From assembly GCA_964348825.1 (NCBI GenBank), contig CAYGDX010000002.1, positions 195,013 through 259,012 of the forward strand: a DNA stretch of 64,000 nt, read 5' to 3'. The stretch comes from an uncultured Gammaproteobacteria bacterium. GTDB lineage: Bacteria; Patescibacteriota; Patescibacteriia; Veblenbacterales; UBA10138. Made by a program: the position numbers and the translations under genes. Each line of letters starts with the position of its first letter. Positions within the stretch are counted from its first letter, which is position 1. Under the pieces are notes generated by a model, which was given only the letters and a program-made list of their open reading frames with translations, was not told the DNA's origin and ran no database searches. Of the stretch, positions 7,151 through 55,113 are shown piece after piece.

Positions 7151-7768
7151 CTACTCAATAATAATAACTTCACCATCTCTAATTTCTTTATATGGAATAT
7201 TATTTTCTTTGCAATACGCAATTTCTTTTTCAATATCCGCCGATTCAGGATGATTGGAATCCCAATGTGGCATAAAACGAAAATCGACAAATCCTAATCC
7301 ATCCCATAAAATTTCCTTTTGTTCTTCATATGGAGTATCAAGCGGGTCGACTATATCCATACCTTTTAGACTTGACGCTAGAACACAACCAGCGGCGCTA
7401 TAACCAGCGTAAAGAAAATTACTATCATTACGAAGTTCTTTTAGAATTTCATCAAGCCCGCTTAATTTCATCGCTTGGCGCAGAACAAACACATTACCTC
7501 CGCTGATAAAAATTGCGCCAAGTTCATTAAGTTTATTTTTAAGTTCATTCTGCTTTCCGAAATAATCTTGCAAGTTTAAAAGCTCCACTTCAAGACCGAG
7601 TTTACAAAGCGAACCCATATCATTTTCGTTACGCTTAACCCGCCTCTCTGGGTCAGCGCCGGTAAAATCTCGTGCGTTCGGAATATAGCCGATTTTCCCC
7701 TTCGGAACGAGCTTTTTCAACTTTTCCGTCTCGTTTCCAATTTCGTAAGATGATAGATAATATTTCAT
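7151..7768 (-). CDS. Peptidase S51 family protein (dipeptidase E / cyanophycinase-like)
   Basis: 205 aa, pattern GAIFISGGNVFVL...AGYSAAG typical of the S51 family. Confidence 0.6.
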   Translation of the reverse strand: MKYYLSSYEIGNETEKLKKLVPKGKIGYIPNARDFTGADPERRVKRNENDMGSLCKLGLEVELLNLQDYFGKQNELKNKLNELGAIFISGGNVFVLRQAMKLSGLDEILKELRNDSNFLYAGYSAAGCVLASSLKGMDIVDPLDTPYEEQKEILWDGLGFVDFRFMPHWDSNHPESADIEKEIAYCKENNIPYKEIRDGEVIIIE

Positions 7769-7778
7769 AATTTTATTC

Positions 7779-7834
7779 TAGCGGTGTACTCGGGCTCAGT
7801 ACCAAGGGTACGAGACACCGTAAGGGTTGTTTGG
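7779..7834. repeat. Diverged partial copy of the cassette-array repeat (3' portion); left boundary of the tRNA-Ser island
   Basis: tagcggtgtactcgggctcagtaccaagggtacgagacaccgtaagggttgtttgg aligns with tggcggtgtactcgggttaggtaccaaaatactagaggtattgtaaggggttt of the full repeats. Confidence 0.55.
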
Positions 7835-7887
7835 AAGAAATTTATAGACTAAACCGAGACATGTGGATTACTGGTCCAAATTTTAGA

Positions 7888-8487
7888 TTAATCCTTTTTA
7901 AGGGTCAGCACTCCACCCGTTATATCACTCAGCAAAAAGCTGGCATATTTTTCCAAAACAGGAACAGTGAGAGGAATTTCGATCTCGGGCTGATTAAAAG
8001 CAATTAGCGTTTTAAAATTCTTTTTGGCAATTTTTTCCTTAGTTACGCAGGTATCGATGTTTCCGGACAGAATTATTTTTTCAATAGTGAGAGAAATATC
8101 AAGAATTACTTCGCTAAACACTTCCATATTTTTTATTAAAACCACTCGTTCTTGTAGATCCGGGAGAATCTTAACTGCCTCAAGGAACAGAGCCTCATCT
8201 CCACTTTTTAGAATAATGGCTTGAGCGTTCAAGGATTTTTCTAACTCGGAAATAGAATCAACAAAGGCAACATCTGAATGGTCGTTACCGATTTGCTCAA
8301 GAAAATTTTCCCGTGCCATGGGGTAGGCTGTAAGAAACAGGATTTTAGAACCTGACAAAAAGAGATTCGCAATAAGTACTATAGATAAATGCGATCCGCC
8401 CATATGTTCGCCATATGTGATGAGGCAAGGGAGATTGCTTTCCGAGATTATGTATGATTCATTGTTTAATACCAACTTTCCTAACAT
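7888..8487 (-). CDS. Hypothetical protein; first cassette of the tRNA-Ser array
   Basis: 199-aa ORF bounded on both sides by array repeats. No recognisable motif. Confidence 0.4.
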   Translation of the reverse strand: MLGKLVLNNESYIISESNLPCLITYGEHMGGSHLSIVLIANLFLSGSKILFLTAYPMARENFLEQIGNDHSDVAFVDSISELEKSLNAQAIILKSGDEALFLEAVKILPDLQERVVLIKNMEVFSEVILDISLTIEKIILSGNIDTCVTKEKIAKKNFKTLIAFNQPEIEIPLTVPVLEKYASFLLSDITGGVLTLKKD

Positions 8488-8561
8488 GTTTATATTTTAG
8501 CTTAAATAAAAACTTTAGGATAATCATGGCTCGAGTCACCCTATTACCCTAAGTAAATAGG

Positions 8562-8744
8562 TCGACTCCGATAAAAAGTTGTCGTGGCGGGGTGTACGAT
8601 ATTCGAACTAAGTGGGTCGCCTATCTTTCATAAGTAAGTAGGTCACCCCTTTTACTCAGGAATATGGGTTCACTCCGATAATAAAATGTGCTGGCGGTGT
8701 ACTCGGGTTAGGTACCAAAATACTAGAGGTATTGTAAGGGGTTT
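8562..8744. repeat. Cassette-array repeat, full copy (~183 bp). Contains two sub-repeats, each ending in TGGCGG(G)TGTAC, which resembles the tRNA-Ser 3' end.
   Basis: Identical to 9961-10143 apart from about 2 substitutions. tcgtggcggggtgtacgatATTCGAACtaagtggg mimics the tRNA-Ser 3' end tggcggagaggggagATTCGAACtccc. Confidence 0.85.
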
Positions 8745-8812
8745 TAGGGGTTTAGTCTATGCGACTATTTAAGGTGCTTGAGTCAGCTTGTATTTTATAA
8801 ACCTCGCCGTTT

Positions 8813-9307
8813 TTAATATTTTACTAAACTCTTTTTCATTTCTATTGTATTGGGATGATTTTTAGATTTAGTATGGTTTATTTTCACCTTTTTGTATCCT
8901 CTTCGTTTATAAAATTCAAAAGCCCCGAAACTGGAAGGAACTTTTACTGTTTTATGCCCTTTCTTTTTTGCCAACTCTTCAACTTTATCCATTAATTTTG
9001 AGCCAACACCTTTTCTATGAATTTTAGGGTTCACGAAAACTGTATACACAGTGTCTCCTTTTAAACTAGCTGTACCAATAACTTTTCCTTTTTCAGTGAC
9101 AACATAAATTGTTCTATTTTTCGAATTAGAAATAATCAATGCTGGTGTGAAAAAATTACACAGACTTATAATGACTTTTTTGGAATATTCTTTAATATTC
9201 ACTTCCTTAAGACATTTTCTAATTATATTAGAAACACTTTTAGCATCCTCTTTTTTAAATTTTCTAATACGCATACAAATAAAATTATCGAGATACAATT
9301 TTGACAA
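8813..9307 (-). CDS. GNAT family N-acetyltransferase (cassette 2)
   Basis: Acetyl-CoA motif RKGVGSKLMDKVEELAKKKG. The likely true start is the internal MRIRKF. Confidence 0.7.
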   Translation of the reverse strand: MSKLYLDNFICMRIRKFKKEDAKSVSNIIRKCLKEVNIKEYSKKVIISLCNFFTPALIISNSKNRTIYVVTEKGKVIGTASLKGDTVYTVFVNPKIHRKGVGSKLMDKVEELAKKKGHKTVKVPSSFGAFEFYKRRGYKKVKINHTKSKNHPNTIEMKKSLVKY

Positions 9308-9315
9308 TCATAATT

Positions 9316-9385
9316 AGGCACTCGGGTCTACCGATTATAAGTATTCTTGGTGGTGTATTTTGACTAGACATTAGAATCCTAAGGG
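9316..9385. repeat. Diverged short copy of the cassette-array repeat
   Basis: aggcactcgggtctaccgattataagtattcttggtggtgtattttgactagacattagaatcctaagggg shares the cactcggg...taagggg ends with the full repeats. Confidence 0.4.
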
Positions 9386-9432
9386 GTATATAAAGAAGAT
9401 AACCAATCTAGTTATTTGCTATAAGTAGCTCA

Positions 9433-9909
9433 TTATCGTGATTCAATAATTTTCAAATCCTTGTTAAATCGGTGATATGTAAAAAATAATTCTCCATCTT
9501 TGGAATTTATTATGAGTTTAATGTGGCGTTTTAAATCTGGATAGAGTTTAGGGTCATCAAGGGCTTGATCAATATCTAACCACACTGGGATACCCTCTCT
9601 TGATTTTTTAATTGAACCACTAAAATTATCTGCTACAAAAATATATACTTGGTAAACTTTTGATTTATATTCATGATAATGCGTAGCGATAATTCGTAAC
9701 GAAGCATCTTTTACTAAAAACCCAGTCTCTTCTAATGTTTCACGAAAAGCTGCCTCTTTAGATGTTTCGTTTTTTTCCTGTTTGCCTCCTGGCAACATGT
9801 ACCAGCCAGGAAATTCAGAGAGAGTATCGCTACGTTTAATCAAAAGAATTTGTCCACCCTTAATAAGTAGCATGTTAGTTGTCGGAGAATAGATGATCTT
9901 TGAATCCAC
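9433..9909 (-). CDS. NUDIX hydrolase (cassette 3)
   Basis: Nudix box GGKQEKNETSKEAAFRETLEETG. Confidence 0.75.
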   Translation of the reverse strand: MDSKIIYSPTTNMLLIKGGQILLIKRSDTLSEFPGWYMLPGGKQEKNETSKEAAFRETLEETGFLVKDASLRIIATHYHEYKSKVYQVYIFVADNFSGSIKKSREGIPVWLDIDQALDDPKLYPDLKRHIKLIINSKDGELFFTYHRFNKDLKIIESR

Positions 9910-9960
9910 ACATTTAAGTTTAAACCTTACTCAATAAAGAGCAAGGTTTAGGTATTCGGC

Positions 9961-10143
9961 TCGACTCCGATAAAAAGTTGTCATGGCGGGGTGTACGATA
10001 TTCGAACTAAGTGGGTCGCCTATCTTTCATAAGTAAGTAGGTCACCCCTTTTACTCAGGAATATGGGTTCACTCCGATAATAAAATGTGCTGGCGGTGTA
10101 CTCGGGTTAGGTACCAAAATACTAAAGGTATTGTAAGGGGTTT
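9961..10143. repeat. Cassette-array repeat, full copy (~183 bp)
   Basis: Near-identical to 8562-8744. Confidence 0.85.
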
Positions 10144-10177
10144 CGGTGGATCAGGTAATACATAAGCCATGATAATA

Positions 10178-10921
10178 TTATCCCAGGGTATTGATATAGT
10201 GAACAAAACCCTTGAGTAGATTGTCGTACTTTTTTATAATCTGCGGATTGTAACTGTTCAACTTAATTTCGTTAAGCGTTGCGGCTACTTGTGTCTCCAT
10301 TTCTCCTTCTGCACGGGATATGAGATTCGAATATGAGAACGCGCCTCTCGCCCCCTTATCTTTCTGCAGAAGATCAAGTAATTGTGCAATCTTTTTTATA
10401 TAGTAATCATCTTCTGCAACAACACCTTCTTGGTGGAGCCGAGCACGTCTCTCCATTTCAGGGAGTTCGTCAAGAAGCGCTTCGTGGTAGGTTGGCAGTG
10501 TTTGCCGAAAATCAGTGGGTACAAACTTTTTTCCAGCAACATGCTTCCAATTAGGTAAATCAAGGATGTGCGACTTCGGACTCTGTACTGTTGCGAGAAA
10601 ACTTTTAATTTGTCCACCGCTGAGTTCACTTTTATAGAGTACACGAAATCCGAATTTTTTGATCTCAGGAACTTTACCGATTAGATACATTCTAATTTCT
10701 TGCTCCAGTTCAAAGGACACCATATCGTCGACAATAGCGATTGAGTCTATATCGCCTGTTTCAAAATGAAAATCATCGCGCAGAATCGATCCCCAGAGAT
10801 AGACAGCCTCTATACCTTGTAACCGAAAGTCTTTATACACTTCCCGTAAGATAGTTTCCGCTTTTTGTAAAATTGTTTCTCTTGTCTCCATGTTATCTGA
10901 TTTTGATACTTTAAAATTCAT
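10178..10921 (-). CDS. Nucleotidyltransferase-domain protein (ANT/Lnu/KNTase-like; cassette 4)
   Basis: GS...D.D nucleotidyltransferase signature in YLWGSILRDDFHFETGDIDSIAIVDD. 247 aa. Confidence 0.6.
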   Translation of the reverse strand: MNFKVSKSDNMETRETILQKAETILREVYKDFRLQGIEAVYLWGSILRDDFHFETGDIDSIAIVDDMVSFELEQEIRMYLIGKVPEIKKFGFRVLYKSELSGGQIKSFLATVQSPKSHILDLPNWKHVAGKKFVPTDFRQTLPTYHEALLDELPEMERRARLHQEGVVAEDDYYIKKIAQLLDLLQKDKGARGAFSYSNLISRAEGEMETQVAATLNEIKLNSYNPQIIKKYDNLLKGFVHYINTLG

Positions 10922-10940
10922 TCGTAGTGTAAGATATTTA

Positions 10941-11030
10941 AACTAAGTGGGTCGCCTATCTTTCATAAGTAAGTAGGTCACCCCTTTTACTCAGGAATAT
11001 GAGTTCACTCCGATAATAAAATGTGCTGGC
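10941..11030. repeat. Cassette-array repeat, 3' part only, fused directly to the 3' end of tRNA-Ser
   Basis: aactaagtgggtcgcctatctttcataagtaagtaggtcaccccttttactcaggaatatgagttcactccgataataaaatgtgcTGGCGG runs straight into the tRNA CCA end. Confidence 0.8.
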
Positions 11031-11114
11031 GGAGAGGGGGAGATTCGAACTCCCGATACCTTGCGGTATGCCGCCTTTCCAAGGCGGTGCACTAGGCCAC
11101 TATGCGACCTCTCC
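11027..11114 (-). tRNA. tRNA-Ser (anticodon GGA), 88 nt with a long variable arm and an encoded CCA
   Basis: Reverse complement reads GGAGAGGTCGCATAGTGGCC...CGCCTTGGAAAGGCGG...GGGAGTTCGAATCTCCCCTCTCCGCCA. Anticodon loop is TTGGAAA. Confidence 0.85.
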
Positions 11115-15014: not shown

Positions 15015-15175
15015 TGCCGCCCTGTCGTAGGGCTTGTACAGAGCGGAAGTCAAACGAGCTTTAGGTCAGGCCGTGTTTGTGGTCGTTTAGCATAGGCCTG
15101 ACCAACTCGTTTGACGAGCACTGTTCAAATATGGAGACCGAGGCGGCGATTTTGTGTTACTTTATAAAAAGTAAC
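15015..15175 (+). repeat. Structured GC-rich dispersed repeat, copy 1 (orientation A): ~140-nt long-hairpin core plus a terminal palindrome gttactttataaaaagtaac
   Basis: Copies also at 34621-34780, 39138-39297 (reverse) and 54951-55113 (reverse). Inner stem is gaagtcaaacgagc / gctcgtttgac. Confidence 0.8.
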
Positions 15176-15199
15176 AAAATAAAAAATAATTATAAATTT

Positions 15200-34620: not shown

Positions 34621-34780
34621 TGCCGCCCTGTCGTAGGGTTTGTACAGAGCGGAAGTCAAACGAGCTTTAGGTTCGGGCGTGCTGTGGTAGTTGTGCATAG
34701 CCCGAATCAGCTCGTTTGACGAGCACTGTTCAAACCCGGAGACCGAGGCGGCGATTTTATGTTACTTTATAAAAAGTAAC
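34621..34780 (+). repeat. Structured GC-rich dispersed repeat, copy 2 (orientation A)
   Basis: tgccgccctgtcgtagggtttgtacagagcggaagtcaaacgagc...gttactttataaaaagtaac. Shows a compensatory stem change relative to copy 1: ttcgggc/gcccgaa here against tcaggcc/ggcctga there. Confidence 0.8.
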
Positions 34781-34862
34781 ACGATTGATATTGACAAAAC
34801 CGCCAAAAATAATAAAATTAAACAAACACACACCATCAAAAAACAAAGATTGGAATTTAACA

Positions 34863-39137: not shown

Positions 39138-39297
39138 CTTCTCTAGAGAAGTGGTGCAAGAATCGCCGCCTCGGTCTCCGTATTTAAACAGTGCTCGTCA
39201 AACGAGCTGGCTCGGCCTATGCACAGCGGCCACAAACACGGCCTCGCCGGACGCTCGTTTGCCTTGCGCTCTGTACAAATACTACGACAGGACGGCA
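39138..39297 (-). repeat. Structured GC-rich dispersed repeat, copy 3 (reverse orientation), with a terminal palindrome cttctctagagaag
   Basis: Reverse complement aligns with copies 1 and 2 across the long-hairpin core. Confidence 0.75.
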
Positions 39298-54950: not shown

Positions 54951-55113
54951 CTACTTCTCTAGAGAAGTAGCGCAAGAGTCGCCGCCTCGGTCTTCGTATT
55001 TGAACAGTGCTCGTCGGACTCGTTGGCTCGGCCTATGCACAGCGGCCACAAACACGGCCTCGCCGGACACTCGTCCGACTTCCGCTCTGTACAAATACTA
55101 CGACAGGGCGGCA
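54951..55113 (-). repeat. Structured GC-rich dispersed repeat, copy 4 (reverse orientation), with terminal palindrome ctacttctctagagaagtag
   Basis: Aligns with copy 3. Inner stem shows a compensatory change: gtcggac/gtccgac here against gtcaaac/gtttgac in copy 1. Confidence 0.75.

Follow-up and report, generated by a model that had tools for sequence, protein, structure and literature searches.

How do unrelated genes come to stand in a row behind a single tRNA gene? The question is raised by a 64,000-nucleotide stretch of contig CAYGDX010000002.1 (the window), from a small-genome Patescibacteria-type bacterium. Here a tRNA-Ser(GGA) gene is followed by an array whose features all lie on the minus strand and whose cargo consists of a nucleotidyltransferase (NTase), a NUDIX hydrolase, a GNAT acetyltransferase and a family-less protein, and nothing else. 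A note made earlier from the sequence alone (the original prediction) had read this as an integrase-less array of single-gene cassettes, and ARAGORN, Rfam and the open reading frames (ORFs) agree with it that the four genes lie 3' of the tRNA on its strand. The array is probably a tandem of small non-autonomous integrative elements that accreted at the CCA end of tRNA-Ser(GGA), a large serine recombinase (LSR) being likely supplied in trans. Serial site-specific insertion is supported by four lines of evidence: the anatomy of the junctions, their recurrence at tRNA-Ser ends, their association with LSR genes and polymorphism at the exact junctions. The original prediction was thus largely right, except for the class of the recombinase and the claim that the arrangement is unfamiliar.

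The spacers between the genes are junctions, formed by a right end, Y, followed by the 6-nt core CCGCCA, which is the tRNA 3' end, and by a left end, X. Y is ~55 nt long, reads ..CCCTTACAATAC..GGTACCTAACCCGAGTACA and ends ACACCGCCA. X comprises, in this order, RRACAATTTWTTATCGG, ACCCGAGT, a hairpin-prone stretch and GCGACCCGAGT. The near-palindromic octamer ACCCGAGT, found once in Y1 (the Y of the window) and twice in X, may be a protein site. At the two borders of the array the junctions are incomplete: the tRNA-proximal one joins the tRNA to X without Y, and the distal one joins Y to the flank without X. As predicted, the repeats at 8562-8744 and 9961-10143 are nearly identical despite unrelated cargo, with exactly 2 differences in 183 positions (8584/9983 and 8726/10125). 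Each is composite, assembling Y, a 107-nt gene-less unit and the start of a further X, and the gene-less unit ends in a second tRNA-like 3' end, GTTCGAAT..CCCGCCA, so that two cores are spaced by 107 nt. The array therefore has seven CCGCCA-type cores, rather than the five repeats first counted. The partial copies announced beside them are present: a 106-nt copy at 10927-11032 (96 % identity by blastn), a Y part alone at 7781-7837 and a decayed junction at 9314-9385. The first of these abuts the tRNA CCA, which bears out the predicted fusion of the last repeat to the tRNA. Gene-less units of the identical length, 107 nt, recur in the unrelated contigs L093, L108 and L118; they may be empty cassettes or displaced tRNA ends.

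Colinearity is seen between Y and the tRNA T-arm with the acceptor 3' strand (GGGTNCNNANCCC and a further 13 nt up to the CCA). Beyond the core the two resemble each other only modestly, agreeing at 10.4 of 28 positions where shuffled sequences give 7.0 +/- 2.3. Identity between the tRNA end and Y is restricted to CCGCCA(G), and the breaks of homology fall at the core; few identical bases around the crossover are what characterises the attachment sites of LSR elements. The colinearity with the T-arm also suits a different explanation, in which these would be tRNA islands of tyrosine integrases, the integrase genes having since been deleted and the Y copies being displaced tRNA 3' halves. Such integrases are known from textbooks to insert at tRNA 3' ends and to leave partial tRNA repeats, as in the tycheposons discussed below. 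The identity seen here is however limited to the 6-nt core and a loose T-arm pattern, and Y1 is conserved between genomes while their tRNAs differ. The coordinates of all array features are collected in Table 1.

Table 1. Features of the array, ordered from the tRNA gene towards the distal flank (positions in the window).
Feature	Position	Strand	Basis or remark
tRNA-Ser(GGA)	11027..11114	minus	ARAGORN; Rfam tRNA 54.9 bits
Core at the tRNA-Ser(GGA) 3' end, CCGCCA	11032-11027	minus	attL side; identity with L130 stops exactly at 11027
X, left end of cassette 1, long form, distal tRNA-like end decayed	10927..11026	minus	blastn 96 %; nhmmer X E=5e-12
Cargo 1, 247-aa nucleotidyltransferase-fold protein	10178..10921	minus	ORF; weak NTP_transf_2 E=0.0047, below cutoff
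Y1, right end of cassette 1 (T-arm mimic), core CCGCCA 10096-10091	10091..10152	minus	nhmmer Y1 E=3e-11; alignment
107-nt gene-less unit, X body ending GTTCGAAT..CCCGCCA, second core 9989-9984	9990..10090	minus	nhmmer X at 10096 and 9989
Short X start (TGACAACTTTTTATCGGAGTCGA), left end of cassette 2	9948..9983	minus	nhmmer X E=3e-7
Cargo 2, NUDIX hydrolase	9433..9909	minus	Pfam NUDIX 1.1e-15
Decayed NUDIX/GNAT junction: Y-like, core CCACCA 9353-9348, short X-like part	9314..9385	minus	alignment; weak nhmmer X E=0.0016 (9314-9353)
Cargo 3, GNAT acetyltransferase	8813..9307	minus	Pfam Acetyltransf_10 2.9e-16
Y1, right end of the NUDIX+GNAT unit, core CCGCCA 8697-8692	8692..8756	minus	nhmmer Y1 E=5.9e-12
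Second 107-nt gene-less unit, core 8590-8585	8591..8691	minus	nhmmer X at 8697 and 8590
Short X start, left end of cassette 4	8530..8584	minus	nhmmer X E=1.3e-9
Cargo 4, 199-aa protein, family-less	7888..8487	minus	ORF
Distal Y1, mutated core CCGCTA 7784-7779, attR-type end of the array	7779..7837	minus	nhmmer Y1 E=4.6e-6; diverged, Y part only; no X after

The same ends are found well beyond this genome. The pattern made of the core followed by X has matches in at least 120 metagenome contigs; since the pattern required CCGCCA and X, the counts describe the family and not its frequency among all tRNA genes. Among the matches listed, the core and X directly follow a real tRNA 3' end in 57 junctions (Ser 50, with five anticodons, Asp 5 and Trp 2) and a Y-like end, of at least four classes, in 57 others, while 10 lie at contig edges. 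Profile scans also return many Y ends without a following X, which are right ends against a flank. Matches to a Y-core pattern occur in two GTDB Patescibacteria genomes, Ca. Uhrbacteria UBA10169 and one Patescibacteria metagenome-assembled genome; in the former (L007), tRNA-Ser(CGA) is followed by two ORFs and then by a Y1-X junction. Between consecutive junctions, 59 units could be delimited, from 107 bp to 13.7 kb, most of them of 0.4-3 kb, recombinase-less and holding one or two genes. L016, L094 and L124 contain arrays of three or four units. The cargo of the family is diverse, with NUDIX, GNAT, Fic, HigB, methylases, SAVED, MFS and dehydrogenases.

Several of these loci display features of their own. 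L085 and L094 share their upstream context and a first cassette (a 394-aa ORF) after tRNA-Ser(GCT), and their distal parts differ: two more cassettes and an end at a second tRNA-Ser(TGA) in L094, a continuation with Y2-like sequence in L085. In L022 (~1900-1967) and L073, the tRNA-like 3' end directly before X has its T-loop split by a ~35-nt GC-rich hairpin, and ARAGORN does not call either of these interrupted ends as a tRNA. In L008/L012, from the Patescibacteria H43 bin, a pair of ~150-bp direct repeats (minus strand, 7090-6945 and 5703-5560) brackets an AbrB-like gene, a Y-X junction, a DUF218 cassette and a Y end. There is no tRNA near this bracketed region, which may therefore represent integration at a non-tRNA site.

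Which recombinase belongs to these ends? None is encoded in the array, as the original prediction had it, and no LSR in the rest of the window; a tyrosine recombinase acting in trans, or else an unfamiliar mechanism, had been suggested. The associated family is instead an LSR. When the ORFs downstream of X are clustered, the largest family is a protein of 440-520 aa that combines the domains Resolvase, Recombinase and Zn_ribbon_recom and has the SPbeta integrase YokA/SprA and the TP901-1 integrase among its relatives. It is the only recombinase enriched near X, with 39 copies in 0.76 Mb, 35 of which are on the strand opposite to the tRNA and X. Across 53 informative loci (non-redundant, with at least 3 kb downstream of X), the LSR gene lies within 5 kb downstream of X in 18, always on the opposite strand; it lies upstream in only 3 loci. 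LSR domains top the Pfam counts both among 81 ORFs in bounded units and among 137 ORFs downstream of X, and Phage_integrase is outside the 25 most frequent Pfam families listed for either set, which again speaks against tyrosine-integrase islands.

Units that carry the LSR are bounded as the cassettes of the window are, by X at the left and Y1 at the right: two in L016 (2.6-2.9 kb), one in L116 (5 kb) and one in L084 (13.7 kb). The LSR domains are present in these three relatives and in L068, likewise X/Y-ended, and the smallest units, of 2.6-2.9 kb, comprise the LSR and one to three small genes. One LSR gene of L016 spans 8071-9441, and that of L068 spans 1109-2461. In L113, a recombinase-less unit, a 40-aa LSR remnant persists beside the Y1 end. 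LSR relatives are also encoded in 34 IMG/VR contigs. In 12 of these contigs a tRNA gene, encoded on the other strand, follows ~0.1-4.7 kb after the 3' end of the LSR, and the closest of the relatives sit at tRNA-Ser with X. More distant ones (45-65 % identity; L142-L171) are found at tRNA-Asp, -Glu, -Gln, -Trp and -Asn and share an AGCGACC motif ~20 nt after the tRNA end, hinting at a clade of serine integrases that target tRNA ends.

One viral contig, L145 (IMG/VR UViG_3300025154_002045), contains an X-bounded element with a LexA-like repressor, a pair of genes of a cyclic-oligonucleotide-based anti-phage signalling system (CBASS; SMODS and Cap15), the LSR and a type I restriction system, immediately preceded by a phage lysis module whose terminus is a Y4 end. 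The Y4-X junction of L139/L145 was considered as a clean free attP and rejected, as it is a tandem of the lysis module and the element with LSR, CBASS and type I restriction-modification.

The locus itself can be followed in independent assemblies. In L006 (sample ERZ27247817) the order tRNA-X-NTase-repeat-NUDIX is reproduced; L175 reproduces NUDIX-GNAT with the repeat-specific single-nucleotide polymorphisms (SNPs), and L001 to L003 reproduce repeat-unknown-S51, where S51 is the distal flanking peptidase gene and L001 contains the other SNP, beside the gene of unknown function. All are 100 % identical to the window. These contigs bear on the idea that the order of segments is an assembly artefact produced by mis-joins within repeats: the repeats do agree without a mismatch over 141 nt, which is the k used in the other assemblies, and those assemblies break inside them, but L006, L175 and L001 span the adjacencies with the SNPs that tell the repeats apart. 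An artefact is therefore very unlikely.

Sample ERZ27247837 presents a different arrangement. In its contig L005, the NTase cassette with its X is preceded by a Y1 copy and not by the tRNA, and upstream of that copy lie at least 10 kb of an additional element, which measures at least 11 kb and is joined exactly at the Y1-X junction. In the 10.9 kb of L005 examined, this larger tandem element encodes HTH_17, UmuD/UmuC, an N6/N4 methylase, a LexA-like repressor and DUF3892; its own recombinase would lie past the end of the contig. A homologue of its left-most ORF adjoins a divergent LSR gene in another contig; a homologue search with that ORF did not recover the left end of the element. The chromosomal contig L130, from the same sample, matches the window over 10,867 bp at 99.945 %, and the match stops exactly at the tRNA CCA, beyond which the sequence is unrelated. 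Compared with L006, these arrangements mean that the site is variably occupied and that the break points fall at the core. HTH_17 is excisionase-like, which would suit tyrosine-integrase islands; the right end of L005, however, is free of any displaced tRNA 3' part.

L130 also carries a second allele of the tRNA. Between 11027-11114 of the window and 10780-10867 of L130, six bases differ, all within the anticodon stem and forming three compensatory pairs (CCGCC/GGCGG vs CTTGC/GCAAG), in 10.9 kb that are otherwise identical; the Logan contig L131 ends just before the differing stem. The pattern suggests that the island was exchanged by recombination anchored in the tRNA. It could also mean that the 3' part of the tRNA is element-borne, a further point in favour of tyrosine integrases; with the LSR counts, the short core and the right end of L005 on the other side, that origin of the array is unlikely.

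Repeats that interrupt assemblies could equally be ordinary dispersed ones, of the miniature inverted-repeat transposable element or repetitive extragenic palindrome type, lying near a tRNA by chance, and breakage in a repeat is what any multi-copy repeat causes. Neither blastn nor profile searches found a further copy in the 64-kb window, so the repeat is local, and not dispersed, within this stretch, as the original prediction required. Half of the junctions found, among the matches listed, abut a tRNA CCA to the base. A chance neighbourhood hardly deserves consideration on these grounds.

Serial integration of small elements is the reading retained, and the ends permit a mechanism to be proposed. 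A cassette would consist of a left end X and a right end Y, and its free circle would contain an attP of the form Y-CCGCCA-X. The attB would be the tRNA end, the core and the flank, and integration would yield tRNA-X on the proximal side and Y-flank on the distal side. Since Y mimics the T-arm and the acceptor end, both partner sites would present a tRNA-like left half, with a crossover in or next to the 6-nt core, probably catalysed by the LSR. A later integration into tRNA-X would leave an internal Y-X junction. The window would then read: tRNA, X-NTase-Y, 107-nt empty unit, X-NUDIX-(decayed junction)-GNAT-Y, 107-nt empty unit, X-unknown-Y, flank. NUDIX and GNAT, flanked by two intact near-identical junctions and split internally by the decayed one, probably moved as one composite unit. 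The LSR would come from elsewhere: an autonomous relative that shares the X/Y ends, either a phage or a minimal element of 2.6-14 kb, would provide it in trans, and the cassettes may still be mobile today. The predicted insertion at the tRNA 3' end is thus upheld by att-type junctions, by the hot spot revealed by L005 and L130 and by the contigs of the family, and the order of the insertions is what we infer from the arrangement. We rejected a model that takes X for host sequence and tRNA-X for the empty attB, since X adjoins LSR genes and is present six times within the array.

Several observations weigh against this mechanism. No LSR was found by tblastn in the array, in the window or in the 10.9 kb of L005, and neither a circular junction nor a precise loss of a cassette was observed. 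A serine integrase normally accepts attB as the sole partner of attP; insertion at an attL-type tRNA-X site hence needs a relaxed choice of partner, like that of CcrAB. The decay of the junctions is not monotonic with distance from the tRNA, nor do the halves Y and X form a clear dyad about the core. The sequence that follows the tRNA in L130 is not X-like: if it is the left end of the large element, that end differs from X. The loci were gathered by a pattern that itself requires CCGCCA and X, hence a bias of ascertainment. Finally, the homologues of the NTase, which share ~50 % identity and belong to Parcubacteria-type contigs, are not in X/Y contexts, which makes them uninformative as a test of cassette mobility.

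X deserves separate attention, as its conserved length, 60-100 nt, exceeds that of a serine-integrase half-site. Its folding is better than that of shuffled sequences (mean z = -1.35 over 111 variants), and in the main subfamily a hand-drawn structure has 75 % of its cells paired vs ~35 % for slid partners; the stems differ completely between subfamilies. Covariation is weak, its score being reached by 47 of 500 shuffles. RNAalifold predicted no consensus hairpin on 68 and 34 X copies, and Rfam 15, applied to the window region and 14 related loci, returned only tRNAs and sub-threshold matches overlapping them, leaving X and Y unmatched. X may have a role at the RNA level besides that of a half-site. 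On the Y side, the conserved left part of Y1, CCCTTACAAT (at 8731-8759 on the minus strand of the window, and likewise in other copies of Y1), fits a -10 hexamer through its -10-like TACAAT, and TAGACT, resembling a -35 box, stands 17 nt upstream. This predicted promoter-like part may drive the next cassette, or the element's own gene in a circle.

These properties invite the view that the repeats are functional intergenic RNA or regulatory modules of a tRNA-led operon (tRNA-like processing or stabilising signals, promoters, hairpins) and that duplication, homologous recombination and gene conversion enlarged the array. Besides the hairpin potential of X and the -10-like element of Y1, the cargo is all co-oriented with the tRNA, no terminator is predicted within the array, and near-identity of the 183-bp copies is expected from gene conversion. 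Such modules would leave unexplained the LSR association with its orientation bias, the exact junction polymorphisms, the Y-flank ends without X and the same ends around unrelated cargo in many genomes; the weak covariation and the lack of an Rfam match do not favour them either. We consider this origin rather improbable.

The cargo and the neighbourhood complete the description of the locus under the preferred reading, a tandem of integrative elements. PADLOC and NCBIfam assign no specific function to the array cargo. The 199-aa protein has no match in Pfam, NCBIfam or PADLOC, and an identical protein is recorded in three other assemblies. The start codon of the GNAT gene is probably the ATG at 9274, the 153-aa form being the recorded one. 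An exact-protein look-up of the NUDIX protein and of a 110-aa upstream ORF gave no match, probably due to different start codons. The neighbours are the tRNA, three small unknown ORFs, phosphoenolpyruvate synthase, peptidase S51, RidA and DnaG. The S51 gene (7151-7768) flanks the array distally, the array ending 10 nt before its start codon. In L097 (285-751), an S51 gene 77 % identical to that of the window is itself followed by a Y1 end, and the flanking gene of the window may be an old cassette. A separate dispersed intergenic repeat, unrelated to X and Y, is present at 15015-15176, 34621-34781, 39161-39297 and 54965-55113 (~150 nt, 81-89 % identity).

How do these arrays compare with known systems? 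In the staphylococcal cassette chromosome elements (SCCmec and psi-SCC), CcrAB or CcrC act at the 3' end of rlmH and give rise to tandem arrays with short integration-site repeats in between; recombinase-less members are thought to move in trans or with their neighbours, and new elements enter at the gene-proximal site. LSRs, tandem arrays and recombinase-less members are common to both, whereas SCCmec has a protein-gene target, elements of 20-60 kb, no tRNA mimic in its end and a Firmicutes host. Integrons rely on a tyrosine recombinase, IntI, encoded beside attI, and on folded single-stranded attC sites. The likeness lies in single-gene, co-oriented, promoter-less-looking cassettes with their own recombination sites, in a single attachment site and in a recombinase encoded outside the cassettes. 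Here, in contrast, a tRNA end serves as attachment site and a serine recombinase is the associated enzyme; no intI beside attI with a Pc promoter was found among the array's neighbours.

The closest parallel is offered by the ssrA islands of Dehalococcoides, arranged in tandem at the 3' end of the single-copy tmRNA gene, with a CcrB-like serine recombinase, DsiB, encoded on the reverse strand beside attL (PMC3146451). They are bounded by repeats of the 3' end of the gene, with conserved sequence beyond the direct repeat, and 15 islands without an integration module are proposed to be cis-mobilizable (PMC3146451). A streamlined genome, tandem elements after a tRNA-like gene, an opposite-strand LSR near the tRNA side and recombinase-less members are shared with the present family. 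The target differs, being the tmRNA T-loop with a 20-bp repeat in Dehalococcoides and, here, the CCA end of tRNA-Ser, or else of tRNA-Asp or -Trp, with a core of 6 nt, and so does the scale: islands of many kb whose integration module has six genes, a second small recombinase among them, against units of 0.1-3 kb, often with one gene, and autonomous units made of the LSR and one to three genes. The cis-mobilizable elements (CIMEs) related to ICESt1 and ICESt3 of Streptococcus thermophilus have functional att flanks, no recombination genes and a tandem arrangement with autonomous elements sharing their att sites, according to the passages of PMC3146451 that treat them. The window cassettes, bounded by X and Y1 profile matches, are likewise att-flanked and free of recombination or transfer genes; CIMEs differ by their tyrosine integrases, fda target, conjugative partners and larger remnants. 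In the tycheposons of Prochlorococcus, successive tRNA-proximal integrations push older elements inwards, leaving partial tRNA copies between them and degenerate remnants; 910 of 937 elements have tyrosine recombinases, and the repeats are true partial tRNAs (10.1101/2020.12.28.424599). The reduced genome and the tRNA-proximal accretion are alike, but the present elements are LSR-associated, without Phage_integrase among the 25 most frequent families listed, and have a 6-nt core and a Y that is a T-arm mimic and not a tRNA copy. Dehalococcoides and Prochlorococcus thus provide precedents for an architecture that the original prediction regarded as unfamiliar and unusual in a reduced genome.

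As the recombinase-less cassettes share their ends with LSR-encoding elements, the system is a new form of an established route to genomic islands and not a new mechanism. What sets it apart is the CCA-end target at tRNA-Ser, the 6-nt core with a T-arm-mimic end, the single-gene and 107-nt scale, and the host group. No description of this system was found in the literature on serine recombinases at tRNA genes in Patescibacteria, of which the coverage was incomplete. A bolder proposal, made tentatively, is that of an integron-like gene capture in Patescibacteria: single-gene cassettes would be captured serially at the tRNA-Ser CCA by trans-acting LSRs encoded by phages or mini-elements, at a composite site made of the T-arm/CCA mimic, the 6-nt core and a structured X with ACCCGAGT repeats. 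In this proposal an occupied tRNA-X would be a better target than the empty site, making arrays self-reinforcing, and the cassettes may be read through from the tRNA promoter.

In Patescibacteria (the candidate phyla radiation), genomes are tiny and only a few ways of exchanging genes have been recognised. A widespread and sequence-defined hot spot at tRNA-Ser would give a searchable handle on their accessory genes, a pool that here includes NUDIX, GNAT, Fic, toxin, methylase, CBASS and restriction cargo. If the reading is true, serine integrases that recognise a tRNA 3' end through a tRNA-mimic attP, with 6 nt of identity, would represent unusual attB/attP pairs, of interest as genome-engineering tools.

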